Origin: Amoebophrya sp. A120
Lineage: Eukaryota > Protista > Dinoflagellata
DNA: 64,000 nt
Reading direction: 5' to 3'
Assembly (NCBI GenBank): GCA_905178155.1
Contig: CAJINV010000007.1
Span: 2,027,151-2,091,150, forward strand
Position numbers and translations under genes: made by a program
The notes under the pieces: model-generated
The model's database searches: none
Seen by the model: the letters and a program-made list of their open reading frames with translations, nothing else
What the model was told of the DNA's origin: nothing
Shown here: piece by piece, positions 22,230 to 58,959 of the stretch
How the letters are laid out: every line of letters starts with the position of its first letter
Position numbering within the stretch: the stretch's first letter is position 1

Positions 22230-23730
22230 TCAGTGTTTAAACTGTCCCGAGAAAAACAGAGCGAGGGCGTGCAGAAAGGCTGCACAGTGGCCGTAGACAA
22301 AAAACGCCACCTGCGGTCGGGAAAACCTGGGGTAGCGCTGCAAGAGCAGGTCCACGTCGATTTCCTTTATCTATGAATTGCAGAAGTATGGCTATACTTA
22401 AATAGCAACATTAGATGCTCAGTGCGACCAATGAGATTTGGCATGCCAATTTAGCTCGTCAGAAAAGTCAGTTGCAATTATGTTGCACAATCGCAATTTT
22501 TTACGTAGTGTCTACAAGTCCGCTACTTCTGCTGCATGTGATATCATCATCGGCATGCCTAATCGTTTGTGGTGCACGGCCAGGGCGCCGACGGTCCCGC
22601 CGGCAATCATGTGGTCGGTGAGCGAGTCGATCCGGGCGACGTTGTGCGCCCGCACCACCCGGAACGGGCACTGGAGCAAAGTGTAGAGGTAAAATAGCCC
22701 GGCGAAGTTGCGAAACCGCTCTAGCCTCACCGACCCCGGCATGAAATTCACATTGGGGCTCAGCGCGGTGGCAACCGCGCCGACGAGAATGGCAGGTAGA
22801 ATCCCGCCGACCACACAGGCTGCGGGATTCTGCTCCCCCGGCGGTGGCAACCGCACGCGCTCCACCGGAATCAGGGCGCGCATCTCCCGGTTCGCCTGCT
22901 CGTGCGGATATCCGAAGTCCCCCTGGGGCGGTTTCGGGAAGGGGCCGGGGCCCCCGCCGTCGCTCCTTCCGCTCCATTTGGGCTGCAGCACCGACCCGAA
23001 CGTGGTATGGGAGCGTCAGGTTTGAAATCGTCAGAGTTGAAATGATTTGCCATGCATAAAATGCGACACGAAAAGTGACTCTATTGCAGAGGACCCACGG
23101 GAGGCAGATTATAGTCCTGGTAAGGGTCAAAAGTTGGACTGCTAACTAGCATGACAGAAGGCAGCTCTTTTGCCCTAAACCGCATGACAGACTCGCTTCC
23201 AGGACCGGGAAAATTTGTCATGCGCCGACTACAAACTGTAGGTCTGACTGGTATCCGTTTTATGCATGGCAAACTATTTCAACTTTGACGATTTCAAACC
23301 TGACACATCCATACGTAGGGTGCCGCTGGTACAGCTGCAGCCACTCGCTGGTTTGTGGGTCTCGGTACTGTCCGTTTTGCATCAGCATGCGCCGGTTGTG
23401 CTCGACGATGCGCAGGTCGAACCATGTCGGGCCACCAGCTGCACGAAGATCTTCTTCAGAGGGACCACTTCTACGGGGCTGGTCGTAGTTGAAACTGTTT
23501 GTTGTAGTTATTGCTCCTGTTGCCTGCTGCGCAACACCTGTACTTCCAGTAGTAGAAGAGAATTGTGTGGGGTAGCCGCGAGAGGCCGCTGTTGTTGCAG
23601 AGGACGACGAAGCAGTCGCGTTGTCGAAGTCAATACCACCCGCCCCGGCGCCCGCGTGCCAGATGTTGTCAGAAGCGTCCTTAGAACCGCTGGGGGACGG
23701 TGGGGACTGTGACTGAAAAAAAGACGACAT
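22230..23730 (-). CDS. Tim17/Tim22/Tim23-family membrane protein, 3 exons
   Basis: RFRNFAGLFYLYTLLQCPFRVVR...DHMIAGGTVGALA resembles the Tim17-family TM2-TM3 signature. Exons join in frame across 23006-23313 and 22372-22543. The last exon ends VAFFVYGHCAAFLHALALFFSGQFKH*. Confidence 0.65.
22372..22543. mobile_element. Introner
   Basis: tatgaattgcagaagta / tacttctgctgcatgtgata. Flanks ttatc/tcatc. Frame restored. Confidence 0.75.
23006..23313. mobile_element. Introner (TATGGGAGYGTCAG family)
   Basis: Inverted repeat of about 54 bp tatgggagcgtcaggtttgaaatcgtc...gcataa / ttatgc...gacgatttcaaacctgacacatccata. Flanks cgtgg/cgtag. Join gives HPTFGSVLQP. Confidence 0.9.
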
Positions 23731-33800: not shown

Positions 33801-34557
33801 AATTTAACAACATTGCGACGTCGCGGCGCGTCATCCGGCAGAAACGTCACAGTGAAACTAACAATTTTCTCGTGGGATACTGCTGGGATTCCGAGAAACT
33901 GGGTTGGATGAAGAGCTGTTTTCCCCAGGAGCGGCAGCACTATTGTTTCGCGGGGATCCGATGGAAAAATATTGCGCCGTGTCTGCTTTTTTTGATCCCT
34001 CCTTACTGGCAGATGCTCCTGTGGTCGTCCCGTCGTTTGCTGTAGCTGTAAACGGTCCTGCTCCTACTCCTTCGGAATGTTGGTGTCTGAGTGTCGATGG
34101 CTCTGGTTCTCTAGAAGGTCTGTCAGGCGATATATCCTCTGTCAGATCCACGATGTTGGTCTGTAGAAACTTGCTCGGCTGAGATAACTGAATCGTGCTC
34201 GGGCTTTGGATATTCTCTCCCAGAATCGCGTGGACTTCACCAGCAACGGTTGCCGCTGCTTGCGATTGTGTGAGGGAAGTTCCGATGGGGGCTAACTCTT
34301 CTGCTTGCGCCGCGCTTCTGGCACTCATCCCAGCAAGGGTCGGATCTGATATTTTCGGTGCTGATCTTTTGTGAAATAATGTGTGACTGCAAAACGAGAA
34401 GTGCACAACTACAGACTAGCTGCGAGAAAAAGGTATCGCGGCTCCCTGACGTTGCTATAGTAATAGTAGTGCCTATCATGGTAATGCCTCGGATTAGATT
34501 ATGAGAATAGAGAGTACAACACTTAGGAACAATTGTACCTGGAGGAACAGGGGTCAT
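30847..34557 (-). CDS. Pro/Ala-rich hypothetical protein with a short coiled coil, multi-exon; start uncertain
   Basis: Chain of minus ORFs (33858-34406, 32326-33036, 31829-32065, 31504-31785, 30847-31320). Joins verified across 33024-33251 and 31361-31529. Confidence 0.5.
31361..31529. mobile_element. Introner (TATGCAA..AAATTTCC family)
   Basis: tatccaaagtaaatttcct / aggaaacttgtatttttgcata. Flanks ggttc/gattc. Join gives FYGNLRSGL. Confidence 0.8.
33024..33251. mobile_element. Introner (TATGAGAGYGCACA family)
   Basis: tatgagggcgcacaactcccccttcccctcatttgt / acaaatgagggggaggggaagttgtgcactttcata. Exact direct repeat ggaaa. Confidence 0.9.
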
Positions 34558-35614: not shown

Positions 35615-38600
35615 CTACCCTTCCACGTCCATTGGCTGCACATCGCTACTCGCGAGGCGACCCTGCTGCTTTGCATCGCCCACTTCCGCTACTTGCTTCT
35701 GCAGCTGCTTCAATCGTTTTTTGTGCAGCTTCTCCTCCACCGTGCCGCACGCGTAGAACCGATAGACACTGACCGCGCTGGCGGTCTGGCCGAGTCGCCG
35801 CACCCGCCCAAGCGCCTGCTGCTCGATCGCCATCGACTCAGCGGCGGACTTTGCAAGGACCGGGTGCACGAACAAAATGTACCGGGCCTGTGGAGAACTT
35901 ACTTACATTCGAATTTGATTTTCGTAGGATACTTACAGAAAAAAACGCTCTTCGTTCTTCGGCGAACAGCAACAGCAACAGACCAGGAAACCGTACGAAA
36001 AACGACCAACGACATTCATCACAGACAAATGATGCTTTGAGAACGAAGCGACGCATAGAATAGTCTCATCTCTATACGAAACTAAATACGTCGCGTTCGG
36101 AAGAAAGAAAAGTCGAAGCAAGCTGTACCCTCGTGAGCGTAGTTCCGCTTGCTTTGTTCTCCAAGGACATCAACAAAATCTCCGAATTCTCCCAGAGAAA
36201 AATGCTAGTATATATCATACGCGCAATATTTGTATTTTTGCAAAAAGATCACATCAGTAGAAAAACGGAACCTAGAAAACATCAGCGATATCGGCGACCG
36301 TGAGTGCCGCATAGCTGGCCGCGTGGGTCCTCTGCAAGTAGACTTTTGCACCATTTGGATTTTTCATTTACAGTAAACATACATACTCTAGCTGTTTTTC
36401 TCGGAGATACGGACTCTCCCCGTACTCGTCCGCCTTGTCCTTCTGGAAGCAGCGGACCACTTTGTTCTGCGTGTTGGCATTGGCTTTGTTCAGCATGCGC
36501 GACTTAAACTGGTAGACTTTGAAGGCCGCGTCGATCTTCTTCATTAAGTCCGTCCACTGACAAAACACAATCGCTTTCGACCCGGGATCGTCCTTCTTGA
36601 TCTGCTTTATGCAAGTGCAAAAGAATCGCATCAGTATGGCAGGTTTTTTTCTCCAGAAGAAAATACAGATTCAAACGTCGAAAAATAAAACCCTATGTCT
36701 GTGGTTATGCGTGAAGATTGTCGCGATTGGTGGAAATTGTACGATACTTTTGCCGTGGATATGCTTCAGGACTTCGCAAATCCTTTGGATTTTCGAACCG
36801 AAATGGTCGTAGCTGTTCGGCGGTACGACCAAATTGAAAGAAGACGAGCTGGAGGAAGTAGCACCAACCTGTATATGAAGTGGTTGGCAACGCGAGTTAT
36901 CAAACTCAAACGGTTAAAGATGAAGCTCATCGAGATCGACGCACTTCTATATTTCTTATTATCTTCTTGAAAGTCATATTATAGACTCCTAGTCTTCTTT
37001 TCTTCTTCGAAAAAGCGAAGAGCATATGGTAAAGCCCACCTATTTCCGCAAAGTAGGAATTGAACTAAGTAGCTACCTTCGACGCCCCTCCTTGTTCCGG
37101 AGAGGGCACGAGGTAAAAGTGTGGCGGTTCCCAGGCGGGAATTTTCGCCCTGCTGACCGGGCACTTCTTTCCAGTGGCGCAGTCCTCGCAAAGCACGTGG
37201 CCGCCACGTGTGATTCCCAAGGCAGATAAGCCTTCGCTCTGGCGTTTCCCGCAGCACGCGCAGCCGGGCGCGTTGGCGTGGTAAGAAAAGAGGTATGACG
37301 CGGTGCGGAGGAAGTTCGCAGCCTTGATCTTATCGTGGTACCGCGCTAATGCGTTCGACACTTCCGGAAGTAAGATTTTGTTGAAGTAGTATCCGACCTT
37401 GGCCGCCCAGGCGGGTTTTGCGGTGACCGCGATTCCTCCGCTACTGAAAAACAAGCTCGGGCGCTGGTCCTCGTCGTCCTCGTCCTTTGCCTTCGCATTC
37501 GTTTTTCTCTTCTCTTGACTGTGCGCCCCCAGCAATGTTTGCTCTGCTCCACCACTTGAAGCGGCTGTGGCTACGAACTCTGGTTGGTTCTCTTGCGCCA
37601 ACAATGCCGGTGCTTTGTTCGCAAGGTCGCGGCTGCTCTTGTCCCCAAGATCAAAGAGAGGTGGTGAGCATGCAGCTGCGCCGCCCACGTTGGCCTTCTG
37701 AGGCGACGGTCCCCGCAGAATCAGGTTGGCAGACGATACTGCTACAGCTTTCGCTGCCGGCGCTTCTTGAGAGTCAAGCTCCACTCCTGCCTTCGCGTGT
37801 TCAACATCACAACTCGTCCGCGTTTGGTGTTCATTTAGTTCTAGTTTTTTGCCTTCGTTTGCATTCTTCATTTCGTCTTTTTCTTGCTTGGTCAGAAGCA
37901 GCTCGTCCACCTCCGCACGCTTTTTTCTTCGCTGCTCCGCCAGGAATTCCTGTTTTCTGTTGTGAAACGCCAGCTGCTCCGTTTTCAACGTCCGCTCGAT
38001 CGCGTCGACCGCGGTTTTCGTACTGTCCCTGAAAAACGTGTACCACTTTCCGACCTCCGTGTTCTGAAACCCTTCGTCTCCACGTTTCCGCCCGAAAGCC
38101 GTGTCGACGAGCTGCATGGGGTCCGTGTGCGCAGTTTTCTCCTGCAGGTGCAACAGCACGTTGAACTGGTTTTGGTAGACACAATATGCATTGCAAATAA
38201 CATGTAGTCCGAAAAGCCGGATCTTCTTTTGTAGTTGGAAAAGCAAAACCGCCAAACATCAAAACAACTGGGTTTCATTTTATGTTGCGCAAAGAGCGAT
38301 TGCGATGCTCCCGTTGTCATGCTTCTTCAATATCAAGAATTTTTTGCGAATTCTGTGACACCGTTCTGGGCCGAGTGCGTGTAGTGTAGTTGTAGACTGT
38401 AGTGAAAAACAAAAACGAAAAGCGATATTCATTGAACAGACCAGACATCATATTTGCTGCGCGATACTTGTGAAGACGCGGAACTTCCGCAGTTACTCGT
38501 GGCTGACATCGTGTTCACCATTTTGAAAGCTTCTTCGCAGAAAGTTTGGATCTGCTGCGTCATGTCAGCATAGGACGCGTCCAGGACTGCTGTTCCGAAG

Positions 38601-41600
38601 GGGGGATAAATCTGGTCGAACAGTTCGTTTGCGGGGATCTCTCGTTCTTCGATTTTGTTACCAGCGAGCTCAGCTTTTTGTTGTTCACCAGCAGGGGCGG
38701 CTGGGGGTGGATTCCTCGCGAAGGCTGCAGTACTTGCTGAAGATGTTGGTGCGGACCGAGAACTACTGCTAGAAGCCTTCGCCTTCTTGGCGGCCGGCTC
38801 GTCGTCGGTCTCTCCGACGCCCCCCGGAATTTCCACAGGAGGTGCGGCAGCAGCATTACTAGCAGTCGCCCGCTTCATGGGCTGCAGCTGGTGCTGCGCC
38901 TGTGCTTTAGCCTTCGCAGATGCGGATGCCGCGGCTTTCGCTTTCCCGTTCTGCTGTTTTGCCTTCGCAGAAGTTGTGGCGGACGCTGTTGAAGCTGGTT
39001 TCTTCATTGCGGTGGAGATACTATTGGACCCTGCTGCAGCCGCAGTCATCTTCGCTTTGGCCACAGCAGAAGCTTCGGCGCTTGCTTTCACTTTCGGAAT
39101 AAAGGATGGCAAAGTGCACACTGTCGTCTGTGTGCCAGCGGTGGCAGTTTCTCGGGGCTTGTAACAACTTGGAATGAGATCGACCTTCTTGACTGGATCG
39201 GAGATGTAGTTATCCGTCGTCGTGATTGTTTCTTCGACTATGACTTCTCTATCTCTTTCATCTGCCGCTTCATTAACAGCAGCGGGGAAAATCTCGTCCG
39301 CAATCATGTTGTGCGGTTGTGGTCGCTCCTCGCCAACACCGAGAGCATCATCATCTTCGGACACTCTGTCCTCCTGAGCACCATCTTCGAATGTTGAAGC
39401 GGATTTCGCCATGTTGTAACTTCGGGAACTACCATGCGGCAGGAATTCTTCGTTGTGTTCCATCATCTCAACATCTTCCACCCCATTGCCATCCAAGAGG
39501 AGGACACCAGCAGAGGCACCCGTGAGCTGCGATTTTAATTGCGCCGCACTGGCTCGACAAGCTTGCAGCTGCTCCTCGGTTAGAGGAAACAATGACATCA
39601 ACATCTCGCCTCGCCCTTCCACTTCATCTACTTTCGCCGGAGGATCGGCGCTGCAGGTAAATAAAGAAGACGCTGCAGTTGTTGACACCAGTCTCGTGGG
39701 CAACACACCAGTTCTTGCAGCTGCCATGGCGGAAGATGAAGATGATGAGGAAAGCGCAGCACACTTGGAAAAAGTGGTCTGCACCGCTTTGCTCGCACCG
39801 ATCGTGCCGATCCGTAACGCCCGTCGCTGCTGGCAGAAGATGAGCAAGCGCCGGCATACCTCCACACGCGCAAAGTGGTCCCGGACTTGTAGTGCCTCGG
39901 ATTTCAGTTCCGCCAGCGCTTTCTTCAGGCGGGTCTTCATCGCGTCCGCTGCGGTGCCTTCTGCTTCGTCGGCCGCGTGGTGGCTGCACAGCTTGATGAG
40001 CTGCGTGAAAGCGTCCCGCGCGAGTTTCTCCTCGTCAATGTCCTTGGCGGCGAAGTCAAACAAATCTGGGCCGGAACTGTGTTCGTCCTCGAGGTCCTGC
40101 TTCTCCTTTTCGTACAAGAGCCGCTCAGCGTGCGTCTGCGCGACCGCTATCTCACGCGAAACCTGTTTTTGAGGTTTATTGATTTCCACTGAAATTGCGT
40201 GGCGTTCTGTGTGTTGTTGCGCCAGGAGCATATCTTCAGGGTTATTGGTCAGTCAAATTTCTTTGTAGGTAGTAAGTAGCATGCAAGGGTAGATCTGCTG
40301 ACAGGAGCCACTTTCAGAGCAACTTCCAGTCAACGCGAAGCCAGGACCTCCAAACAAACGAGACTACTGCTGTTCGTCGAAAGTACCACTCTGATATTCT
40401 CCACGTCGTCGCACTTGGCGTTTTGGCGGAAAAGCGTGGACAGAAAATTTTTGCAGTTCTGGACCACAACGGACGACACGCAGGGCGCCCGCAGGATTTT
40501 ATTTGGGTTCCCCGGCTTGTGATCGTTGTCGATTTTCTCGGTTCCCTTGAAGCGCACGGGCGGCGGCTGCGGGCCCGTAGGGGCGAACCACTCCGCGTCT
40601 GCTCCAGTGGTGGCCAGGTCCATGCCGAACAGGCCGCCCATGGTCCGCACGCTTTCCGCCGACTGCACGCACGGCGTCCCCGTCAGCCCCCATCTGCAGC
40701 TGCTCCGCAGGAACATCAGCACGTTGGTCCGCCCGCTCAGCGCCTCGGCTTCCGGGTATGAAAGGCAAAGGCGCAGCAGTGCTGCTTTTTGGCCAAGGGA
40801 AGGGCAGTGAAGCAGTAGGGTTTATTTTGAAATCATACAAGCGGCCAGAAATCTCCTAGAAGCGGCGCCGCCCCCCGATCGTGGATGCATATTGCGCCGG
40901 CAACGGCGAGTCAGGCACTTAATAAATATTTCTGCGGAAACACAACCAGCGCTGGGCCTTGCTTTGCCTTTCATAGATGGAACTCGTCCAAAACCAATCT
41001 ACCCCAGTGGCATTGCTCTAACAGCGGGAATGGTAGATCGAGCGAGGTCTTTGACTTGCTGTTCATGGTAGTCTTGCTGCAGCGCTTGTCCCCGGCGTAC
41101 AGAGCTGGGCTGTTCTTAAGGTGTGTATCCAGATGAAAGCTGCAATGCAGAGCCATTATCCTGCTCGAGTCAAAGCTTCGGATTTGTACCATTTCGTGCG
41201 CAGTTGCAAGAAAAAGCATCAACAATCGCGATGTCATCTTGCTGCCCACCTCATTGCTCTATTCAGTACATATGGAAACTGTCGGAACAACAGGTCACAA
41301 ATGAAAATCACCCTGCTCCCGCCAGACTTGATGTTCATATTCCTAACCTAGTTACTAGCGCGAAACAACAAGGCCTCCGGACCGATACAGGCCGGCTCTG
41401 CAAGGAAAAATAGTCTGCCGCAGATAGATCCGCGTGTCGAAATACGGGGCCCGGGCAGCTTTGTAGTCCGCGTCGCTCCTGTCCCAGTCTTCGATGAGTT
41501 TCGCCGTCACTCGCTTCAACGTCTGCACCGGGTAGGGCTTGTTGGCCGACACCTTCTGCACCTCTTTCCCCACCTCCTTTTCGGGATCGGCGTCCAGGTA

Positions 41601-44600
41601 ATCCTGCACGCGGAGCAGGTAGTCCTTCGAGTACAGGACCCGATAGGTACAGGCCACCAAGTCAAACGCGGCCAACTCCCGCGCGGTCTTCTGGGCCAGC
41701 TTGGTTATGGTCTTAATCGTCAGCACTTTCCACCCGTAATCCTCCCCGAATTTTTTCACCTCCGCTTCCCACTGGTCTACGATTTATGCATTGCTGCAGA
41801 AGAATCGCACTCGTAGTACTCGTAGCCATAGCAGCCTTGCATGACAGTGCATCTACTTCTACCTGATCATCACTCTGCGAGACAAGTTGTGCTTCGTTCC
41901 CTGGCCCTGCATGTAGAAAAAAGTCCTCCCATATTACAGATTCTTACCTCCACGAGCGCGATGCAACTTTTGCAGTGCGTACGAGTTGGCTAGGAACTAG
42001 AATAAGCGTGGTGCTGCTCAGGTCGTAAAAGGAACCGGCGTCCTGCTCGGGGAGCTTCGGCTTGGCTTTCGCGTTTTTCTTCACCGCAAAGAAGTCGTGC
42101 TGGGCCGCCATGAGCGCGAGCGTGGTGGCAGTCTTCCCGAAACCGACCTTGTCCGCCAAGACACCGCCCCGGAGGTTGTACTTGTATTCCACTTCGAATT
42201 CCACACCGATAGCATTCTCCAGAAGCTTGGCGTCGCTGTTGATGCCCAGCATCGCCTCACCCAAGTCCATCATCTTTCTTTGCAGGACGCTCACCGACTT
42301 GGGATTTCGCTCCTGGTCCACCATCCACGTCAGTGCGCGGCGTTGCGAGCTATCAAACTTGAAGCAGGAGGGGCCTACTCTGTGCTGTCGAGGCCAGTCC
42401 TTTTAATGCAAGTACTAGAATGGGCAATATTAGATTGCTGTGAAGATGATGATAGATCGTCCGCGACATCATCAACTACATGCAAATGCATCCTACAATA
42501 AAAGCATATTCAGCATTGTCCACCGAACGTTCTTCTTCTTGCTGCAGACGAGAATTCTATGTTCTTGCGCTATTAACTTTTTCTTCTGCGTGCTACTTCT
42601 ACTATTCAGAATATTAAACTCGATCACCTCTCGACGCAAATGCAAATCAACTCCTGCGTACGTGGGATAACAATCCCGCAGCTGTTTCTCCGGTGCTTTT
42701 GTCCACTTTTTCGGCTGCGCGTGGAGCGCGTCTTCGTCGTTGCTTTTCAAATCGAAACTCGTGTCGAATTTGCTTTCCTGTACGGATGAGGTGGAAGAGG
42801 CGTCTTCGAGAATGTCCTCATTATCGTCGTCCACGTTCGCGTCGTCGCTATTCTGTATTTGCTTTTGGTCGTCTTGAAGCAGTGCCCCCTGAAGATCATG
42901 TCCAAAAGAACCAGTAGCTGCAGCATCTTCCGTTGCTCGCTCCACTGGGTGAAAATACCGATCTGCCATCAACTTCTCCGACACGCGCGGAATTCCCTTG
43001 ATCGTGTTTTGCCGGCTTGAATGGTGGTCCGGGAAAATGCGGACGCGTAGCCGCAGTTCGTCCGCAACGGAAAAACAGTCGCCAATCAGCCGGTTGAACT
43101 GGTCACAGATTCCAAGCAGGCATGATATCAAATGCAGAAGCACCGACATAAAACTCGTAGCTCATTGCCATACTAAAAACTGATGGAGACAACAGTTTTT
43201 GTTCTTATCGATCCTGTAATGCCTCAGGTTGTTCTTGTGCGACTAGATCTGGAAATCAAATACATCTTTCTTCTTGACTAAAACCATAGTAATTTCGTAG
43301 TCATGTCGTTGAACCGGTTTAATCATACTAGGTTTTCGATGCTTTTGCAGTGAATACGTAGTTCCTCCGTGCGCTCCGTTTTGTCCAGGGTAACGACCAC
43401 GGATGCAGGGCACAAATTCAGTGTGGTCGAGAAGTTCTTCATCAACCGATTGTCGAAGGTGTGAAAGTTTTGCGCCACGGCCCAGCGCTCGTCCTCCAAG
43501 TCTTGCAAGTCGGAATAGGGATCCGGAGCGGCAAAGCGGTACTGTGGCAGCGTCGGTTCGAGATCTGCGAGCTTGGGGCTCTGCGTCCCACTTCCACATT
43601 CCAAAGTCGTGAACTCAACACCATTTTTTTCGGACCGAAAATCTGCACCAGCCGCGCTAGAAGATGAAGTAGAAGATAAAGATTTAGAAGCTATGGTGCT
43701 GCCGGTCGAGAGGAAGTTGGAAAACGCCAGAATGCCGCACGTCAAAGCTGGAGAAGCGTTCGGAGCGAGGTCTTGCTGTATCTTTCCGCAGTCATCTTTC
43801 AGTTCTGCCATGAAAGCTTTCAGATCTGCTTTTTCGGTTTTCAGCGCCGGTCCGTAGGTGCGCTGGTCATCCACCTGAAACGTCGGCCGCATATGTGGGT
43901 AAGTCACTCTCGCGACACAGAGATGGCTCGCGTCGATCTCAACTTCCTGCCGCAAATCGTAGCTGCGTTGGTCGTTGATCGGAATGATTTTCTTTAATAT
44001 CAGGTCCACGTCCTTGTTTATCTTTCCAGCATCGCCTTTTTTTGCCCCGGAAGAACTTTTGCTACTTTCTTCTTTATCCTTCTTGCTCCCCGTTGCTCCT
44101 GTGGACTTCGAAGATGAAGAGGCGTTTTTTATTTCGTGCTTGATCTGATTGCTGGTGCGTCCTGGCGGTAGTGGCACAAACCGGCGAAAGTCGGACACGC
44201 CGCAGCCAGCCTGGAGCTTCAGCACCGGACAGGGAAACATACAGTGGTTCGGAATGAAGCGCACCACGCTAGTGTCAGGCGAATTCCGGTTCTCACGCTC
44301 CTGCTGCCCGCCTCCTTCTATGCGGCTGAAACAGGTAAAGTAGGCTGACGTCTGACTGTCTGCTGGCATCGGGCGCGCGGGCCACCAGTCGCCATAGCCG
44401 TGGATCAGCAGCTTCGTCGTGCAAGCGATCTGGCGCAGGAAACCGACCGTGCCTTCCCGCTCCTGGCGCGGTTCGCCGAAGGCGGCGCACTTGGCCGCGC
44501 CGGCCCGCGCAAGCTCGTCAGCGGTGGCGTGCCGCAGCTCCCTCGCTTCGAAGGCCCCGACTTCTGGCTTTGTCCTGTGTAAAAACGTCCCCACCTCCCG

Positions 44601-45167
44601 CCCAAACTCAAGATGAGATTCGTTTGACAGGTTTTCGCAGGCTGTTGCGCACGACAAGTTCAAGATCGCTGCGAAGCCGTATCTAGATACTGGAGCCCCA
44701 ACATTACCAATTATCGGTCATCCCCTTTAATTATATTCTGAAGATTCTACTAGCATGACAAATTGCAAAAAAAACCCATGAGATAATGCATTTCAACATG
44801 GGGCTGCGCAGCATCAGAAAAATTCTAGGGAAGCCGCGGACTTGCATGCTAAATCTGGGGCGGCGGGGGCGTTTATTTTACTCAGGATAGGCTTTATCGC
44901 GTCGCTAGCCGGGAACATTCGCTCAATTTTGAAGTAAGTGGCACAACCGGGTCGGGTGGGGATTTTCACTTCAGACACCACACACAACGCCTCAACATGC
45001 GGTCCTGCTCCCGTGGGTGGGATCGGTGGATGGTACCACGAAGATGATCCTCCACATCCTCCGTGCTGCACCAAATTCGAGGCTCGCACCACTTTGTCGC
45101 CGACCTTGAAAGCAGGTGGGGCAGCGGCTTGCTGGGGCTGCTTAAACCCACCGTAATTGCTCAACAT
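35615..45167 (-). CDS. SNF2-family ATPase with embedded degenerate RING (RAD5/16-like, DNMT5-type module), many exons
   Basis: Motif I GGVLADKVGFGKT, Ia LILVPSQLVDQW, II RLVLDEFH, III RWGLTGTP, IV KAIVFCQW, V LLMSLENKASGTTLT, VI EQQALGRVRRLGQ..VYRFYACGTVEE. RING-like CACC..GHVLCEDC..CPVS. The start and some 5' junctions are uncertain. Confidence 0.88.
36188..36409. mobile_element. Introner
   Basis: tctcccagagaaaaatgctag / ctagctgtttttctcggagata. Flanks cgaat/cggac. Join gives ESPEILLMSL. Confidence 0.75.
36608..36761. mobile_element. Introner (AAAGTATCG family)
   Basis: tatgcaagtgcaaaagaatcg / cgatacttttgccgtggata. Exact direct repeat tgctt. Join gives VLKQIKKDDPGSKAIVF. Confidence 0.88.
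40757..40975. mobile_element. Introner immediately after helicase motif II
   Basis: Perfect 14-bp IR tatgaaaggcaaag / ctttgcctttcata. Flanks ccggg/gatgg. Joins the DEFH exon to the RWGLTGTP exon in frame. Confidence 0.85.
41785..41981. mobile_element. Introner inside helicase motif Ia
   Basis: tatgcattgctgcagaag / cttttgcagtgcgta. Flanks cgatt/cgagt. Join gives VPSQLVDQWEAEV. Confidence 0.85.
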
Positions 45168-46205
45168 CACTCCCGAAGACGACGGGTGCTGCGGATCTAT
45201 ATTTCAATTCTGCTTGCAAAAAATTATACAGTTCGGTGGAAAACCCGTAAAAATACTAGGCGATAATCATTTATAAAAAATCTGAACGTAAATACAAACG
45301 CGTCAAGAATTGCTTGGCTGCTCATCTGCACTTGACTTTATTGGCTATCATGATGCATTATAGATGATTACATTTTGTATTGTCTGTACACAGAATCACA
45401 GGCTGCGGATTAATTGTGCTTGCAGTGGATACATAGCAAAATTGCACGAAAAAAAAATACGTTAGAGGAGCACATCCAAAAAGGGATGAGCCATACAATT
45501 TGGAAATCGCCATGCACTCGTCTCACGACCTCTCCAGAGAAGCAGGATGATTGAAACAAAATCGGCTCGAATCTCAATGCCAGTCGATCGCAACTTTGCA
45601 GCCAACAACACGTTAACGGCATTTGAAGACATAGACAAACACAAACGATACAAAAAAATGCGAAATCTTTCATAGTCGTACTCGTTTTAATATTTCGCGT
45701 TTTGTTCAAAAACTACGATGAGCGACCTTTTGCTTTGTGCTCCACGGCAGAACAAATTTTGAGTCGAAATCAAACTACAAGATCATGAGAAGAATAAAAT
45801 TCGTCGTTTGCTTCTTTCGTGCTCATTTCACCGATATCTGAAAGTCCTGCCTTGCGGCGAAAAATTTGTCCAGATATCGCGTTTTTTCAAAAAACCCATT
45901 GCTCTTCGCAGTGAAAATCAGTAGCGACCGCTCACAACATCTTCGCAGCTTCACGAACATGGTATCTAGGTCACTCCAGTTTAGCTGGCCGGACCCGATA
46001 CCAGCAGTGGGCACGTCATGCTCTTGCGCAGCAGTTCCCATTGCGGCGCAGGAGCCTGTCTTTTCTGGCACCAGGTGCAGGAGGCCGTCAACGGAATCTA
46101 CAACGACAATCTTGGTACTGCTAGCTGCGGACGATGACCTCCTCGACGTTTTCCATCAAACAAAAAAGTGTTAACGTTAACGGTTATCACAGAATTTGTG
46201 ATGCA

Positions 46206-46808
46206 TTACTGCATCACAAATTCCGTTAACACTAACACTTTTCCCTGTGATATTTTCCTCGAATTGTCCATTATCCAGTCCAGTGAGGACTCGAAATCCC
46301 GCCTCCGCAAAATGCGATGCACAAAGAAATGCTGCAGGCCGTAGTGTTCCTGGACGTGGTGTCGTCCTCTTGAACAAGTCGCAGTTGATTTTTCAAGGTG
46401 CCGCGCGAACGTAGTCAGTATGAGAGTGTCGCATTTGGAGGAATCGACGAAGTTCAAGTTGATGAAAGTAGAGCTTGTATTCACTATGCACAACTTACTT
46501 GTGGCGCAGTAGAGCCTGCCTCTATTGCAGAGGACGCAGGCGAGGCAGAGTGAGTGTAGTGCTGCGAACGGGCGTGACAGGAGAGAGCTCTCTTGCCCTA
46601 AACCAACAGGAGCAGCATGACAGATTTGCTTCAGATTTTGCCGGAAAGTTTTGTCATGCGCCGCTTATAAATTGTCGGTCCAACAAGTTTCGAGTTTCTG
46701 CATCTTCGCAAATTATTGCCACTTTGTGGTCGATTTCAAACCTAACACTCCCATAATCAGGTCAAATTTGATGTCCGTGTCCAGCACGTGAACTTCGACG
46801 CGGTTCAT
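46206..46808 (-). CDS. Exons of an unresolved hypothetical gene (probably part of a larger 45.8-48.9 kb model)
   Basis: MNRVEVHVLDTDIKFDL joins in frame to TTFARHLEK...DWIMDNSRK after removing 46419-46755. The true ends are unknown. Confidence 0.35.
46419..46755. mobile_element. Introner (TATGGGAGYGTCAG family)
   Basis: tatgagagtgtc..aatcgac / gtcgatttcaaacctaacactcccata. Flanks gtcag/atcag. Interior collinear with 23006-23313 (tattgcagaggac, ttgccctaaacc, ttgtcatgcgccg). Confidence 0.85.
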
Positions 46809-48909
46809 GATGCCGATTTGTCGTGCTTATCAACCGCAATAATGTTGGGGTCCGGAACAAACTTGCGATGCTGAACCCGGGATGACTCAACCAATTCCGA
46901 CGAGTGCTGCCAACAAGCATGACAATATTTTTTCCCGAACTTCAACTTTCTAGTACATAGTACGCATTACTTACAGCCGGCGTCTCTGCGTGAGAAAAAA
47001 GACCCGCTTTTGCTGGTCACGCAGGCAACATGCACAAGACAAGCATCGGAAGTTCCTGTTGTATTCCAGATCCGGACATATTTCCTGTGCAATGCATAGC
47101 GAAAATGAGGGATCGAATGAGGCCGAGGACGTGGTACACCTACCGCGTAATTGGTCTGTGGTTCTTTTTGAGCTGCGCGGGGAATCGGAGCCGGAGGCTG
47201 TTTTCCCGTACAACGCGGCTAACCATTGTTGAACCACCATGGACTATCCAAGAAAAAAAGTTAAAGCGCTACAGTGACGCAATTGTATGTGAGTTTCTAT
47301 TTCAGCAACACAAACTTTCCCTGCATGACAGCTTGTAGTAAGGCGCCGAGTATCAGGCAAAAAGTGCAGGGAACGAAATTGGTTAGCACTTCCCGCATGA
47401 GAAAGGTTCTCTACTCTCGTGCTTGTGTTCCACCGCAGTGTGTAACTGTGTAGCCCTTTCTTTTTTCCAATATGGACTTCCCGCTTCCGTGCTTTCCCCA
47501 CAGTCCGACCACGTCGCCGAAACGAAGGCAGGAGGCGACGGGACAAGCGAGGTTGTTCTTGTTTTCACCCTGTCGCTCTTGCGTATCAGAAGAAGTGGGG
47601 CCAGAGACGATAGGCGGGAGCCTCGTGTTGACTCGGCGTCTCACGTCGCCCAGGGTTTCGTGGTAGTAGAGAACGGGATAGCTGGACGAAGGTGTCATGG
47701 GATCAAAAATGTCTTGAAGATTTGAATATTTTTGATTGCCGGTGCTCGAATTGCCAGCACAACTTCGATGATCATGTGCATTGCAAAAACAGCGCACTAG
47801 TGTAGACTGCAATACAAACTTTGCCGACGAGAGGACAAATAGTGCAACTCGTAGTGCTGATTCACCTTTGGCGGTGCATCTGTCACGTATGACTGCGATA
47901 GTACTACAAGTACTACGAGTGCGAAAATTTTGCTTTTGCACAGGATAGATCAGTTCGATCGTGGCTCGGTCTTCCCGGCTCTTCAGTTCCATTTGTTGCG
48001 CGGAAAAGAAAATCTGAATCGCCGACAGCACCGGCACCGGAGGAGTACACATGCTTTTCCTGCTCCTGCATCAGGTTCAGGACGTCCTCACACCTGGAAT
48101 TAGAATTACTCATTCCAACTCGTCTTCTTTCCCCTTCTGTCACAAGAAGCGTCACAGCCACTGCCCGCTGGTGAAGAGCACTCGTGTCCGCTAAGCCTGG
48201 TCGCCGAAAGTCGGAAATGCAAATACAGCAATGCAATATTTTTTCGTAGGTGTTGCATTTTTTTGTCCAGAAAAAAACGATCGCGAGCAAATGTAAAAAA
48301 TGTATGATGATGAAAATGTAAATGAGGCACACTACCGTATAAAGCAAATCTGCCTTGATGTCTTCTTGATCTCTCGGTTGGAGCAAAGGGTCTCAAGAAG
48401 CTCAACATCGGGAGCAACGGCGTGAAAAAATCAAGGCCTTAAAAATACTCGCGCAGGGGCAGGAGGAGCAGAAGTGTTGATCATGGATCTTCAAGCAATT
48501 CTGATCGTCATCGGACGAGTGACGACGAAGCCGGTTCGGGCCGTGGACTACCGCAGCAACGGGCAGAACGGAGTCTGGGGCGCGCACGATAAGCAGTTAC
48601 TCATGTAGCGACTCTTTGTGCCAGGCGATGAAATTTTCACCATGTACCTTTACTGCACGGGCAGATAAATGAATGGGATTGCTCCTCTTCGTCTTCGTTC
48701 TGCGTCTGGAAAGGCATACGAAACGAGACAAATTCGTGAATAAACCATCCAACTCTCTGTGGCTGCGTGGAATTTCAATTTCTGTTCAGAAATAGCTCAA
48801 AGAAATAAACAACAAAGCGTTGAAGTTGAACAACCACCTATCGACATCATGGCGTCCATACTGGAAGTCTTTGTCTCTCTCCTCCACCACCACGAGGACC
48901 AACACCAGT

Positions 48910-51900
48910 CTATTCTCCTTCTTCCACCTCAACCACCTTCGTCCCGAGCGTGATCGGCGGTTGCCCCTGCGTCAACAGCTTGTGAAATTCTTCCCTCGTC
49001 ACCGGCGGACCGTGATTCCACTCGGTGGTGAGAAGACTTTCCGCTTCCTGCAGCGATATCGGCTCGCCTATTCTGTGCAAAAACGACGTCACCTCGCCAT
49101 AGTCAACTTAAGGTGGGGACTTTGACTTTGCAACACAAATATTCATGCAGAAGTTATTTTGGGAGTTGTCACGAAGGATATAGCCCTTTCACCGTGGTGT
49201 GGCGTAGTGCAGGTCCGCACGGACACGGACCGCCGCATTGCACACCCTTTAATAATATCCTGCTTACAGCATAGTTGCATAAGTAAGCCGAAACACGACT
49301 TCCTTAAAAATAGAACAAACCACCCCTTCTAGTGACGATGCACAATGCAAACCGCGTTCTGCTACATACAAATCTGCCTGACATCAGCTCTGGGGCGGAC
49401 ACGTGGTTTCTACTGAGGATATCACCGAAAGCGGTGCGCACACTCTCAATGTCGAGTTTATCCGCAGTATCCGCAGTATAATTTCCCGTACAATTTTGCA
49501 AAGGCGGTTGCTGCATGACAAAACTTTCCTTCAATCCTATTCAACAGGGAAACTGGAATCAATGCTCTAAGTTGGAAAAATCTGCGGTGCATGGCACGGG
49601 AAATTTATATTGCATACGCAGCGGGATCCTTCACCAAACTGAGTTTTGTCGTTCATCAAGTGATCGATCTCGAAGTTTTATACTGTAATCGTAAAATCGT
49701 AAATGCCAATGGTGGAATAGTTTACATAAATCTACAATACGATGAAAGCCATACTGCGGGCATCTTCAAGACTAATCGATAATACTATTTCCGTGTTTTC
49801 GCATGCTAGTACAAATAATTTAGTCTCAAAGTACAACTGTGCGTGACAGCTACAAAAACTGCAAGATGCGATACAATATAGTTGGGGCTGAGTCCGTTAC
49901 GGTTCGTTACGGCTCGTTTCACCGTAACGAACGAACGAACGAGTTCGTTTGTGGCATCAGAACGAACAAACGAACGAACGAACGAACGCACTGGCTTTGC
50001 CATCCAAACGAACGAACGAACGAACGAACGAATGTGTGTTCGTTCGTTCGTTCGTTCGTTTCACCGTAACGAACGAACGAACGAAGTGGCTTCGCAGGTT
50101 CGCTAACGACCAAACGAACGAACGTACGCAATTTCGTGAGCTCGTTATGGTTCGTTTCCCCGTAACGAACGAACGAACGAGCCCGGTTCTGGCAGCCAAA
50201 CGAACAAACGAACGAACGAACGAACGAAGGGATTTGCGTTCATTCGTTCGTTCGTTATGGTTCGTTTCCCCGTAACGAACGAACGAACGAAGTGCTTCGC
50301 GGGGTCCGTTAACGACCAAACGAACGAACGCGCGGGCTTTCGGTCGCCCGTTCCGGCTCGTGGCGGCTCCCGTTAAAATAAAGTTTATAAATGAAGTATA
50401 CCATCGCGGGGAATATTCCGCAGGACGGTATTCTGTATTTATGTGTCGCCACCCCAGCGGCTCGACATTCATCCACTAACAATGACCGCCAGCTGCGCAA
50501 CGTGCGCCAAGAAAAGGCAGCGACCGCGACGCACCCAGGGGCCGCCCGCGTGGAGGACACGCATGCAGGATTTTTGGCCCCCACACTACCGAGCCGGACC
50601 GCGGGTTTTCGGTCGCCCCCCCGTTCCGGCTCGTGGCGGCTCCCGTTAAAGTAAAGCTTATACATAAATGAAGGATACCATCGCGGGGAATACTCCGCAG
50701 GGCGGTATTCTGTATTTATGTGTCGCCACCCCAGAGGCTCGACATCCACTAACCATGACCGTCAGCTGCGCAACGTGCGCCAAAAAAAGGCAGCGAACGT
50801 GACGCACCCAGGGGCCGCCCGCGTGAAGGACACGCATGCACGATTTTTGGCCCCCGCACTACCAAGCCGGGCCGGCTCGCTCGGATGCCTCGGGCTTCGC
50901 CTAGAAGAACACGAGCAAGCGCGCGACCTTGCCGTAATCGGACGGACGTCCAGGGCTCCGCTCGGACGCTCCGCTTGGACCGCCGAGACGAGCATTCCGC
51001 CGCATTTCTCTTTGACGGGCAACCGCCTACCAGAAGATCTCGCCGGACTTGTTCGCTAAAGAGAAAAGCACAAAGCCAGCGCCGGACGTTCTTCGCCAAC
51101 TCGCGGAAAGACGACGAGGGAGCTCTCACCTTTTGCAGTGTTCACGCACGGACGTCTTTTTCCGAAAATCGGATTCGTTCGTTACGGCGTTACGGCTCGT
51201 GACGAGCTCGTTCGTTACGGTGAAACGAACCATATACGAACCGTAACGAACGAACGGGAATTCGTTCGTTACGGTGAAACGAACCGTAACGAACCGTAAC
51301 GAACGAACGAAAATTCGTTCGTTACGGTCAAACGAGCCGTAATGAACCGTAACGGACTCAGCCCCAACTATACTCTACGATACGTTTCTGACGTAATCAC
51401 GACCTGTTGCTGAAAAAAAAATCGATTGATTTTTGATCTTTCGCACATGAAAAACGACGAGACTATCACTTTTCAAATATTTGATAAAACAAAATCTACA
51501 TTCATATGAAAAATCGCAAATCGCTCGTGTTTCATCCAGATGCTTATGCTTTAGTTTTACCTTTTACGAGAAGAAGAAAAATTGCAAAATACGCACTCCA
51601 CATTGGCCGCACGTCGAAATTTTCCGTCCATCGCAGAATTACATTCGCAAACATCTTGTCCGTCACTTTTCATTATACACGAGACATGGGACACGGACAC
51701 ACGGCGATGTCATGCCCCATGTCTCATGTCTTGGGACATGGGACATGGAGATGCCATGTCCCGTGTCTCATGTCTCATGTCCTGGGACACGAGACACGAG
51801 ACATGGGACACGAACACGGCGATGTCATGTCTCATGTCTCATGTCCTGAGACATGTCATGTCCCGTGTCTCATGTCCTGGGACACGAGACATGGGACATG

Positions 51901-55640: not shown

Positions 55641-58600
55641 TCAATTTGGCACTGATAGTACTGCAGTTTGCTCGTCAGAGGATGAAGCGGTAGGCGCCGG
55701 GGCAGCTGCTGCTGGTCTCGTCTCTTGTTCCGGACGAAGAGGTGCTGGTGTAGCTGCATCACCAGCCGCGGCGGTGCAACTCGTTGTAGAAGTGTGGGAA
55801 TTATGTTGTCCATTCGCAGTAGTTTATGGAGAGAAAGATGAAGTTTGTCACCGTCACAACATACAAAATTCTTTTTGCCGGTTCGTTCTGCATCACAAAC
55901 TTTTTTGCCATCGCAGCTTTTTCTTGTATCTATTGCAGAAGCGCAAACGCAGAAGGAGTCGTGTTGCACACAGCAGCATGCCTGCCATGCATTTTAGAAA
56001 GTTCATTTTCATGCATAACAGATGAGGATGACGCATTTGTTGTACTTAAATAATTTCGCTCTCCTCCTTGTCCTACCTACCGTTTCCCGATGCGTCAGCA
56101 TGAACCACCCATACACACAGAGGTGGCCGGACCCCAGGGGCGCCGCTTGGAGGCCGCACACTTGCCCCCATGTTTCGTCCGTGGGTGGCACTCAGAGGGG
56201 AGTACCACAGCACCAAATCCCAGCAAAGCCAAAGCAACGCATGACACCCGCAAGGGATGCCGTGCAACCTAATATGCAACCAGTGAGCATGATCAGCGTC
56301 ACATCCAACTATGCATGATCAGCATCTGCAGCGGTGCATCCTAATTTGTTATGCAAAACAGCATGAAAACACAGTGTCGCGCACAGGGCGGGAGGGCGGA
56401 AGAAAAGAACAAACTCAGCACCATCAGGAGCTTAAGGGTCTCTGCACTCCTGGCCCAAGCATCAGCAGCGGGCAGCAAACAACAGCATCATTGGTCAGCT
56501 ACAACTTGCATCGGGAACCAAAGGATACGACGAAATTATTTATCATCACATTCTGTGCTGTGTAAAATGATGCATGCATGATCATGGTACGAAATCCGCA
56601 AAAAAACATGATAACTCACCGTGACGGACTTTTTTTTGTTTGATACAGTTTGTGCTGCTGACTCCTGTACGACTTTAGCAGTAGCTCCGGTGGCCCTTAT
56701 CCCTTGCAAAAACGTCCTCCCGACCCCAGAGTTGTCTCCAGTCGCATCAAACGGATCTGCAAGCCTAGAATGTTTCTCATGCGCAGCCCAGCACGTAGCA
56801 ACGTTTTCAAATCAATGCTCTGAGGGAGTTTGTCATCTTTGTCATGCTACAATCAGGACAAGAGGGTCGATTTGGGTCGTGGTGGTGACGTTTTGCACAT
56901 GATAGTTCCGGGTGGTTGGTTAGTTCCCATTTCCAAGTATCCTGTGCGAAAGTATCGCACTCGTAAGTACTAATACATACAACCAATTGCTGCAGATATG
57001 CTCCTTCCTAAGCCACGACACTGTTGCAATGTCCATTTGCCGAACTTATAGATGCAATTTACTACACAAGTACGATACTTTTGCATTGCATACCAAATCA
57101 GAATCGACAATCATGGTCACTGGGCCGTCATTTTCTAACTGGACTCGCATCATGGCCCCAAGCTATGCATCGCAAATATGTTTGGGTCATCTAGAAGATT
57201 GCAAGACTTGTACTATGTACCAACGCCTCCTGTTGACATGCCGATGTCTCCAAGCTCTGTGCCGCCTGGCGCCGAGCAAATCCAGGTGTTGTCTGTCGTG
57301 CGAAAATGCCGTTTGCCATGCAGATGATGAAATATCGCAATTAATGGATACTAAGCGGACCAAATGAATTTCTCACGGGTCACGCTTGACTGCGTATTGC
57401 ATTGTGATAATAGGCTATAAACTTTTCCAAATTCGAATTCGATCACAGTGACATTTAATCTTCCACCACATTGACATCCAGACATGTTTGCATTGGAATA
57501 CGAACTCGCCCGTCGCAAGTTTCCCCCCGTTCTTGTGCCCCTTTCTCACTTCCTCCACAAAATGGTCATACATCTCTCTCGCCGGCTTCGGGCTCATACT
57601 ACTGTGAAAATCTGGCTTGGGCTTCTTGAACTTTGCGTGCAAAGTGAGCGTATGCACTGCAGATGAAATAGCACCGTCGTCCGTACTGAAAATTGCATCT
57701 ATATTTGCTTTCGTTATGCTTATGATTTACGTTTTGCTCGTTGTCCTTTTCCTATTTAACGAATCATAAATCATTTTTTTCCCAGAGGGAGTATTGCTTG
57801 CATTTTGCAATGCTGATTCAAATCAAATAAAGGAGCCTCATCTATTTCATTCATGCATAAATTGCCATCACTGGTACTACGACGGCAACGACGATACTTT
57901 TATTTTTGCGCAGGATAGAACTGGGACACGATCAGGATGTCGTACTTCGATTCGGTACACGACTGCGCCCACTGCGGCTCGAGCGTTTCCCAGTCGGTAT
58001 TCTCCGGCCCGGCGTTCTATGGAAGGAGCGTCAGATTTGAAATCGACGACGAGAAGCTTGAAATTGTTAAATTCGATTTCATATTTCTTGTATTTTCCGT
58101 CACGCTCAATGAAACGCAAGGCGCAGTATTATAGTGCCTGTCTTGCAGAGCACTCAAGTCAAAAGCCGCTGGTAAGTCTGTTTGGGGTTGGTCTTGGTCC
58201 TAGAGCTGCTACAGTACTAGCACGACAGATGCCGTCTTCCTTGCCCAAACAGCACGAAAGCTTGGATCTCCGTGTTTCCTAGATTCGTCACGCGGCTTCT
58301 AGAAGAAATTGATGGAGGTCCTCACACGACCACAACTGGCATCGATTTTGTGCATCGCGAATTGTTTTGTTTAACTTATTTGTCACCAATTTCAAGTCTG
58401 ACACTCCCATACGTTTTTGGGGAAAAGCTTCATGCGGAGCAGCCGGCGGACGCAAAAATCCAAGTGCTCCTTCGTTATCCTGTGCAAAAGTATCGCACTC
58501 GTATAAATGCAAGTCTTGCATCACAAATCTTGTTCCCAAGGCCAATCAGCATTACAAATTTTATTTCTCATGCTGAGGAAATTTGTAATGCATTTATACG

Positions 58601-58959
58601 AGTACGATACTTTTGCATTTCATATTCGTGTCGGTCTGGCAAATGCCGACGAGGACCAACAGGCCATTTCGGATTTCGCCGGCGACGCCGTATCAATCAA
58701 AAAAGCGCTGTAACGTGGACGGTTTTCTTTTTACAGGTTGCAGTCATGCATGACAAATCGAAATCTTGGACGGTATAATGCATGCTGGTATCTATACAAT
58801 ACAAATTCATGAGCAACTTGCTACTTAATTCTGATCTAAAATTCATGCATTCTTGCGTTAGAAATTCCGTTGGTTAAGAACGTGAAACACTTTTCCCCGT
58901 GATACACCAGTGCTGGTTGTCACCGCGGCAGACCGAACGCGCTGGATTACGAGGCGCAT
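55641..58959 (-). CDS. DTD1: D-aminoacyl-tRNA deacylase, 9 exons, about 244 aa
   Basis: Exons 58959-58905, 58685-58625, 58470-58412, 58012-57918, 57645-57501, 57158-57093, 56932-56905, 56692-56646 and 55819-55641 (735 nt) give [65 protein letters not shown]. The last three exons (low-complexity tail) are less certain. Confidence 0.93.
55825..56645. mobile_element. Enlarged introner (DTD intron 8) with a nested IR element at about 56010-56355
   Basis: tat..aagt..ccgtcac / gtgacggactt..ata. Flanks tagtt/cagtt. Internal IR tgcataacagatgaggatg / catcctaatttgttatgca. Confidence 0.6.
56698..56904. mobile_element. Introner (DTD intron 7)
   Basis: tatcccttgcaaaaacgtc..cgaccc / gggtcg..gacgttttgcacatgata. 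Flanks gccct/gttcc. Confidence 0.8.
56938..57092. mobile_element. Introner (DTD intron 6, AAAGTATCG family)
   Basis: tatcctgtgcgaaagtatcg / cgatacttttgcattgcata. Flanks ccaag/ccaaa. Confidence 0.88.
57164..57500. mobile_element. Introner (DTD intron 5)
   Basis: tatgcatcgcaaatatgtttgg / ccagacatgtttgcattggaata. Flanks caagc/cgaac. Splits GEF|GA. Confidence 0.88.
57651..57917. mobile_element. Introner (DTD intron 4)
   Basis: tatgcactgcagatgaaatagcaccgtcgt / acgacgatacttttatttttgcgcaggata. Flanks gagcg/gaact. Splits SQF|TL. Confidence 0.88.
58018..58411. mobile_element. Introner (DTD intron 3, TATGGGAGYGTCAG family)
   Basis: tatggaaggagcgtcagatttgaaat / atttcaagtctgacactcccata. Flanks cgttc/cgttt. 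Confidence 0.88.
58476..58624. mobile_element. Introner (DTD intron 2, AAAGTATCG family)
   Basis: tatcctgtgcaaaagtatcgcactcgtataaatgca / tgcatttatacgagtacgatacttttgcatttcata. Exact direct repeat ttcgt. Confidence 0.92.
58691..58904. mobile_element. Introner-like intron (DTD intron 1, decayed IR)
   Basis: tatca...tgata ends. Flanks cgccg/cacca. Join gives TTSTGVAGEI. Confidence 0.75.

Follow-up and report, generated by a model that had tools for sequence, protein, structure and literature searches.

One splice register fits every introner junction read in a 64,000-nucleotide stretch of the Amoebophrya sp. A120 genome

Introduction

The genes of the parasitic marine dinoflagellate Amoebophrya sp. 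A120 are interrupted by introners, repeated elements with terminal inverted repeats that are removed from the transcript. We analyzed a stretch of 64,000 nucleotides of this genome (contig CAJINV010000007.1, positions 2,027,151 to 2,091,150; hereafter the window) and found that one register fits every element junction that was read: the intron is N-TAT...ATA-NNNN, with the donor 1 nt before TAT and the acceptor 4 nt past ATA. The comparisons reported here establish the length removed, a register compatible with all junctions, the duplication of the target, the mobility of the elements, and their retention in DNA. With moderate confidence, we attribute the removal of these introns to the host spliceosome, acting without a G at intron position +1 or a terminal AG.

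The elements are the published introners of A120 (PMC7789003) and as such already known; the rule narrows the question of how they are spliced. In the relevant parts of their description (Farhat et al, 2021; PMC7789003), the inverted repeats start with TAT, which is followed by about seven bases that vary and then by a stretch of A, direct repeats of 3-5 nt overlap the borders, and removal is supported by RNA. According to the same parts, the position of the splice sites varies with respect to the hairpin, the border positions are unknown, and the A120 repeats are 1-5 nt away from the splice sites. How the roughly 60% of Amoebophrya introns that are non-canonical are spliced is stated there, and in parts of a 2024 review (PMC11282704), to be unresolved. 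A fixed A120 register is stated neither in the relevant parts of PMC11282704, PMC12130899, PMC9860276, PMC11453091, PMC12005148, PMC12621601, and PMC13326754, nor in the titles and abstract openings of related literature; Figures 3, S19, S21, and S23 of PMC7789003 may show part of it.

Results

Elements are removed together with five nucleotides

In all 20 element introns defined by RNA, including two introns on which a preliminary description of this DNA had focused and the one around the element at 46419-46755, the loss comprises the element and precisely one repeat length of 5 bp, as that description had proposed. The focal introns sit in a D-aminoacyl-tRNA deacylase (DTD) gene on the minus strand (55641..58959), which encodes about 244 aa, carries eight element introns, and was identified by the Pfam domain Tyr_Deacylase above cut-off, PDB matches, and a spliced open frame. 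The window as a whole is eukaryotic, with its long frames on the minus strand, and matches A120, its SNF2-family gene being 99% identical to the annotated A120 protein P0121.

Junctions were read from contigs X1-X3, which come from one sample and were guessed to be RNA. X2 and X3 are shown to be spliced RNA by single contigs that skip GT-AG introns as well as elements, with contiguous record coordinates; such contigs lose rare isoforms. The joints listed comprise 15 of 27 in one RNA comparison and 15 of 32 in the other. Two of the 15 in one comparison (49638->53271 and 52426->54188, in a repeat region, side 22-23) and four of the 15 in the other (X5 only, to 44573/44576, side 20-23) were dropped before counting as short-sided jumps between repeats, which left 24 joints: five GT-AG introns and 19 element introns. 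A twentieth element junction (38181..38467) was derived from contiguous record coordinates. The slide values of all 19 listed element joints agree with the values calculated for exons joined directly. From X7 came short pieces with gaps, and none of the listed joints. Six further introns were taken from P0121, which brings the set to 26; the A120 annotation was built from transcripts, according to parts of PMC7789003, so that the junction evidence of P0121 is indirect and probably not independent of them. All tallies are restricted to these RNA- or annotation-defined introns. A motif scan was rejected as an element counter for being too loose (79 matches versus 44-51 in shuffled sequence), and a candidate element at 19263-19608 proved to be a false pairing.

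A single register fits all junctions

On a scale whose zero is the T of TAT on the transcript, a donor offset of -1 is compatible with all 20 RNA junctions, 0 with 17, -2 with 13, -5 with eight, and +1 with three; the chance that all 20 fit -1 under a uniform register over -5..0 is 10^-4.9. Three junctions exclude offset 0 (elements at 46419, 55825, and 33345), seven exclude -2, and only that at 33345 is unique. The six P0121 introns all lose the element plus five nucleotides and all fit -1/+4, two of them uniquely (40757 and 42351-42669). The earlier placement, with the donor immediately before TAT or 1 nt further upstream and the acceptor 4-5 nt past ATA, therefore holds and is narrowed, as only -1/+4 fits every case.

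It follows from this register that repeat bases 1-4 in the mRNA stem from the upstream copy and base 5 from the downstream copy. The proposal that the downstream copy is intronic thus stands for bases 1-4 and fails for base 5, which is exonic, the upstream base 5 being the first base of the intron. Retention of eight repeat bases is ruled out by the loss of five at all 20 RNA junctions, while keeping the whole downstream copy (-5/0) fits only eight of 20, and keeping the whole upstream copy (0/+5) fails as a general rule at three.

A looser reading, in which cuts wander within the repeat and -1/+4 is merely the commonest, would agree with splice sites being called variable relative to the hairpin (legend of Fig. 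3 in PMC7789003, a part of that source) and with the latitude of the junctions, of which 17 in 20 also fit 0 and one in 20 is unique, in a tally that covers 30 of 59 joints. We regard such wandering as improbable: none of the 20 RNA and six annotated junctions needs another register, and all five junctions that test 0, like all seven RNA junctions that test -2, indicate -1.

The -1/+4 register can be followed through the DTD gene, where the flanks quoted earlier for introns 4 and 5 are all present on the minus strand. Intron 4 (57647..57918, C-TAT...ATA-CGCT) holds the element at 57651-57917 between the repeat copies AGTTC and CGCTC; its RNA joint in X1 and X2 (57645->57918) removes 272 nt, that is, 267+5, with offsets -2..0. 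As claimed, the peptide SQFTL arises only from loss of the element plus five nucleotides, and none of these offsets is GT-AG. Intron 5 (57160..57501, G-TAT...ATA-GCTT, element 57164-57500, repeat GTTCG/GCTTG) is joined in the same contigs at 57158->57501 (342 = 337+5; offsets -1..0). Here, a GT-AG cut is available in frame and gives GEFLGAMM, whereas removal of the element plus five nucleotides gives GEFGAMM. PDB chain 2dbo_A matches the surrounding exons at residues 80-123 and 126-145, which leaves space for E and F, not for three residues. The GT-AG form is not what was assembled, since the downstream exon piece ends at 57158 (+1) and GT-AG would reach 57162. A second in-frame GT-AG decoy is likewise bypassed in assembled RNA at 58018-58411, in intron 3 (58014..58412; RNA joint, offsets -4..0).

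RNA joints also define intron 2 (58472..58625, with a 149-nt element), intron 6 (56934..57093; offsets -4..0), intron 7 (56694..56905; -1..0, which excludes -2 and beyond), and intron 8 (55821..56646; -6..-1, which excludes 0), in which the terminal stem is decayed (duplex -1.5 kcal/mol). A putative intron 1 lies at 58687..58905, where removal restores the N-terminus MRLVIQRV and an RNA piece ends at 58904. All of these are on the minus strand, as are the decisive junctions elsewhere in the window. The intron at 46415..46756 (RNA joint 46414->46757, 342 = 337+5; offsets -5..-1) excludes offset 0, and that at 33341..33563 (A-TAT...ACA-CATT, RNA joint 33340->33564), in which one of five repeat bases is matched, fits -1/+4 uniquely; its joint has no slide (both = 0), is flagged "between: not known", and lies within a 714-aa open frame. 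At the protein level, -1/+4 is unique at 42347..42670 and at 40753..40976, both defined by P0121. In the latter, in the SNF2-family gene, the DEFHE predicted for the element at 40757-40975 is found in P0121 as DEFHEAE, which only this cut gives.

Direct repeats at the base of a hairpin are the classic setting for template switching. The joints might accordingly be artefacts, either of reverse transcriptase switching templates at the repeats or of DNA from an element-free strain, all the more as the RNA nature of X1-X4 was guessed. We find this barely credible: the same contigs skip five GT-AG introns, joints occur at 0-2 nt of microhomology with weak stems (33340/33564, 38178/38466), and the joints restore conserved frames. 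Furthermore, X5, a DNA contig, runs unbroken over 33216-45900 with zero differences and keeps the elements.

The flanking repeat is a target duplication

Across the 26 introns, identity between the flanking repeat copies averages 0.68 at length 5 versus 0.17-0.32 at lengths 2-4 and 6-9, and this peak shows that the repeat is not due to chance. Empty sites in a close relative identify it as a 5-bp target duplication. Comparison with its contig L001 (85-94% nucleotide identity) gives two presence/absence sites of such elements, of 149+5 and 308+5 nt. At 20514..20518 (minus strand), the window has an empty target GGCAC, which in L001 is filled by a newly inserted 149-nt element with a perfect 5-bp duplication; this copy is 92% identical to the element of DTD intron 2 (58476-58624) and lies in reverse orientation, opposite to its transcript. 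Conversely, 23002..23314 (minus strand, 313 nt = 308+5) holds an element that is missing from L001.

Five elements common to the window and L001 were compared on DNA alone. Upstream bases 1-4 differ at none of 20 positions and downstream bases 1-4 at five of 20 (p = 0.047), with no difference among five at each fifth base and five in 200 in the flanking exon. A putative element intron common to both contigs lies at 20900..21106 (minus strand) in the dynamin gene, with differences between the two in downstream repeat base 2 and in the 3' arm; the best match of this gene, its A25 orthologue (77%), aligns poorly around 20904. The drift earlier ascribed to the downstream copy is thus seen between relatives. 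A single polarised case, at 23006, goes the other way: there the downstream copy is identical to the empty site, and the exonic copy upstream carries a change, synonymous in an open frame. A concentration of mismatches in the first four repeat positions, also proposed earlier, is at best weak: with counts of 11, 8, 7, 11, and 5 of 26, the deficit at position 5 lacks significance (p = 0.16), as expected if each position has one intronic copy. T is rare at position 5 (intron +1 in two of 26, first exon base in none of 20), possibly owing to a splicing constraint, in numbers that are small.

With terminal inverted repeats (TIRs) and a target duplication, the elements qualify as non-autonomous TIR DNA transposons resembling miniature inverted-repeat transposable elements. 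They are repeated across the genome (those at 23006 and 46419 share 68% identity over 258 nt), and their diverse families share only short ends. No transposase family was found among the 28 window open reading frames scanned with Pfam, and none is reported for A120 in the relevant parts of PMC7789003; Rfam gave no match in the window, in L001, or in L003, a sequence from a more distant relative.

The staggered cut had been likened to the reversal of a transposon insertion. Removal by such a reversal, through a transposase-like or self-splicing activity, would yield the observed product, which equals the empty site of a fresh insertion, and the empty sites do confirm the 5-bp duplication. The likeness does not carry over to the cut, which falls inside both repeat copies and not at their borders (-5/0 fits eight of 20 junctions, 0/+5 17 of 20). 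Moreover, DNA contigs retain the elements, the terminal stem is predicted to be unformed in 12 of 26, the diverse families share only short ends, and the 28 frames scanned include no transposase family. We therefore hold reversal to be very improbable. Loss of the element plus one repeat would in any case be demanded by reading-frame selection on any introner that is tolerated, and so presumably gives no pointer to mechanism.

Intron ends combine a fixed donor sequence with a variable stem

At the 5' end of the 26 introns, T+2 and A+3 are invariant, T+4 occurs in 25, and position +1 is free (C9, G9, A6, T2). The 3' end has an invariant A-7, T-6 in 22, and A-5 in 24, with the last four bases free and a U-rich stretch at -19..-15. 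In the RNA-defined set, the inverted repeats all start with TAT and carry A in 13-17 of 20 at +12..+15; the last exon base varies (A7, C6, T4, G3), and positions +4..+6 read T, C/G, and variable. G+1, which U2-type GT/GC donors would require, is present in nine of 26. The comparison with canonical host introns uses the five confirmed by RNA in 31641-37076, such as 32123..32355 (GTA...CAG, minus strand). These start GTAAGG, GTACTA, GTACAA, GTACAG, and GTAGCT and end CAG, sharing only GTA at the donor, with no consensus beyond +3. The -1 register places the TA of the elements exactly at T+2/A+3 of these GTA donors.

The two ends are complementary in one register, +k with -(k+3): position +2 pairs with -5 in 26 of 26 introns, +3 in 22, and +4 in 25, leaving +1 unpaired (it pairs in five). 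Pairing is stronger between the two ends of one intron than between mismatched ends (mean -16.3 versus -9.1 kcal/mol). In equilibrium predictions, the terminal pair forms with P >= 0.9 in 11 introns, with P <= 0.07 in 12, intron 5 included, and with intermediate values in three; in four introns the ends pair no better than cross-pairs, and the rule still fits. Conservation of the mirrored arms is uneven, with no deviation in 52 at +2/+3 versus six in 52 at -5/-6 (p = 0.027), which suggests that the donor is read as sequence and not only as stem.

As the main alternative to splicing by the spliceosome, a stem of this kind could be cut by a spliceosome-independent nuclease at the terminal hairpin base, with a 1-nt 5' and a 4-nt 3' overhang, and the ends be joined by a ligase, as proposed for euglenids. 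Such an activity would need neither G+1 nor AG and would bypass GT-AG decoys, the preferential pairing of own ends at one offset would suit it, and in euglenids, introns whose terminal stems are staggered are excised as circles (parts of PMC11282704 and PMC12621601). We nevertheless think it less likely, in view of the many introns with a terminal pair near zero or with ends no better than cross-pairs, the asymmetry of the arms, and a donor in the same TA register as host GTA donors.

Likely removal by a relaxed spliceosome

The U+2/A+3 shared with GTA donors and the invariant A-7 instead make spliceosomal removal likely. In the mechanism that we propose, the TA of the element would supply U+2 and A+3 as in host GTA donors and so place the 5' cut 1 nt before TAT, while the 3' arm would supply both the U-rich tract (about -19 to -15) and A-7 as the candidate branch point. 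Distance would determine the 3' cut, 4 nt beyond ATA. By drawing the ends together, the inverted repeat may assist, and its stability would not be needed; the 12 introns whose terminal stem is predicted to be unformed still fit the rule. As 1+4 equals the length of the duplication, the mRNA after a new insertion, whichever way the element points, is identical to that before it, and the five repeat bases inside the intron can drift freely. A120 keeps U2, U4, U5, and U6 and nearly all spliceosomal proteins, U1 not having been detected, and the nine predominant A120 intron types in Table S4 all have NT donors (GT, CT, AT, TT), as the nine of A25 all have TT (relevant parts of PMC7789003).

Several points weigh against this mechanism. 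An AG acceptor occurs at none of the 20 RNA and six annotated junctions, and there is no pairing pattern between +1 and -1. Standard docking for the second step uses G+1, the branch A, and AG. The absence of AG is compatible with chance (p = 0.19), which means that AG is not required rather than avoided. At two introns, in-frame GT-AG sites lie only 3 nt away and are passed over, although a spliceosome that scans normally should presumably choose such sites. A formed stem would, by the predicted pairing, bury +2..+4 and -7..-5 and need unwinding, and the lariat, the branch point, and spliceosome dependence are themselves predictions. In addition, asymmetry over the whole triplet is not significant (1/26 versus 6/26, p = 0.10), the invariance of A-7 reaches only p ~0.04, and three RNA and two annotated junctions separate -1 from 0. 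Finally, 16 of the 19 listed element joints are flagged "between: not known", and the RNA is one sample, in the form of contigs.

As a more tentative extension, a U1-less spliceosome may read a new grammar, with a donor N-U-A, a branch within the inverted repeat at A-7, and a 3' cut placed by counting. Through this relaxation, three or more unrelated transposon families (A120 TAT, A25 TTA, and L003 NTA-AG) might have become precise introns. The A25 repeats start with TTA (parts of PMC7789003). L003, from the more distant, AT-rich relative, carries an introner-like CTG...CAG element family beside canonical GTA-AG introns, with copies at 6709-6975, 8190-8353, 11148-11376, and 11598-11814 that were delimited by protein homology and open frames. 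Their 4-bp duplications (CTAA, TTAT, TTAA, and GTAA/GTAG) are N-T-A in four of four (~1e-4 by base composition). The element ends in CAG; if its own AG serves as the acceptor, the donors would again be N-T-A, giving NTA-AG introns, which would also favor the spliceosomal removal proposed above. On the other side, the NTA targets in L003 could reflect a preference of the transposase.

Discussion

Relation to known introner systems

The elements of the window share with the published A120 introners RNA-supported removal without GT-AG (20 of 20), repeats of TAT plus an A-run, and a 5-nt direct repeat. Added here are the single register -1/+4, the target duplication read from empty sites, the chimeric retention of the repeat, the U+2/A+3 shared with GTA donors, and the invariant A-7. 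Introners of the Micromonas/Aureococcus type are likewise TIR DNA transposons with a target duplication, are removed together with one duplication, and can be cut inside it (parts of PMC11282704 and PMC9860276). They keep GT/GC and AG, with one splice site co-opted from the duplication, whereas the A120 elements have no fixed terminal dinucleotide. The L003 family, with its NTA donor and element-borne AG, is the closer analogue of that type.

Nonconventional introns of euglenids and hemistasiid diplonemids resemble the A120 elements in lacking GT-AG, in terminal pairing with a 3' overhang, in repeat-like flanks, and in having canonical introns alongside (parts of PMC11282704 and PMC12621601). 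In contrast, the euglenid pyrimidine/purine junctions and CAG/CTG pairing at +4..+6 are not found in the A120 elements, in which +2/+3 is invariantly TA, and whereas the same parts describe euglenid introns as leaving in the form of circles, the A120 elements are known here only from contig junctions. Fritillaria borealis also has transposon-derived introns with non-canonical ends, which are handled by an adapted U2-type spliceosome (parts of PMC11282704 and PMC13326754). It differs in having a terminal consensus of its own (AG-AC, AG-AT) and a conserved U1, whereas in A120 neither end of the intron has a fixed base and U1 went undetected.

With a single register, a class of introns that seemed to lack signals acquires a defined grammar, N-TA(T)...A(T)A-N4. 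The rule specifies exact positions for tests of mechanism, predicts a branch base, and explains silent insertions through the equality of 1+4 with the duplication. Gene finders gain a rule for cases in which GT-AG priors select a false junction and lengthen conserved motifs by a residue. If the spliceosome does remove these elements, G+1 and the 3' AG would both be dispensable genome-wide.

Other features of the window and of related contigs

The remaining element introns are assigned to the minus strand as well. Those with RNA joints are 31357..31530 (offsets -1..+1, sharing its RNA contig with two GT-AG introns, with contiguous record coordinates), 33020..33252 and 36604..36762 (both with a perfect repeat), 33612..33880 (-1..0), 36184..36410 (ending AGA), 46150..46253 (ending ATG, not ATA), 46824..47099 (repeat matched at two of five bases; -1..0), 47241..47473, 47771..47948 (ending ACA), and 49065..49422, whose strand was assumed from its neighbours, no long frame deciding it (-2..0 if minus). 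The junction at 38181..38467 fits -1..+1, with one of five repeat bases matched. P0121 further defines 41122..41427 (-1..0), 41781..41982 (starting N-TAC), 43122..43357 (-1..+1), and 44567..44890.

Some of these elements and their surroundings have features of their own. The very high-copy element at 33024-33251 reaches a DNA word depth of ~31,000 at 33046 in X5, versus ~27 in single-copy DNA, and probably represents a recently expanded family. The element at 23006-23313 holds an inner TATG...CATA inverted pair that ends at 23058, possibly a nested insertion. A gene at 45880-48300 that has a Walker A-like motif, GKHGSGKS, contains five element introns; by its motifs we take it to be possibly a Rad51 paralogue. 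L001 contains at 3527-4677 (window 22068) a 1151-nt intergenic insertion that has long TIRs, is missing from the window, and belongs to a different TIR transposon family.

L004:1400-2800 contains a dynamin-like gene with 37% identity to the dynamin of the window and 16 in-frame stops on the alignment path, seven of them opposite Ala in P0001. It also shows 13 frame shifts, seven at the word TAGT and most others adjoining TAGT. The gene is either a peculiarly decayed pseudogene or written in an unusual code in which the stops and a 4-base step are read as a residue. Gln and Trp readings have been suggested for Amoebophrya ex Karlodinium (parts of PMC12005148), and the L004 pattern differs from these.

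Within the window, 49900-54300 forms a gene-poor block of tandem and dispersed repeats with little RNA cover, which include AACG runs, 7-nt units of the CATGTCT type, and copies about 808 nt apart.

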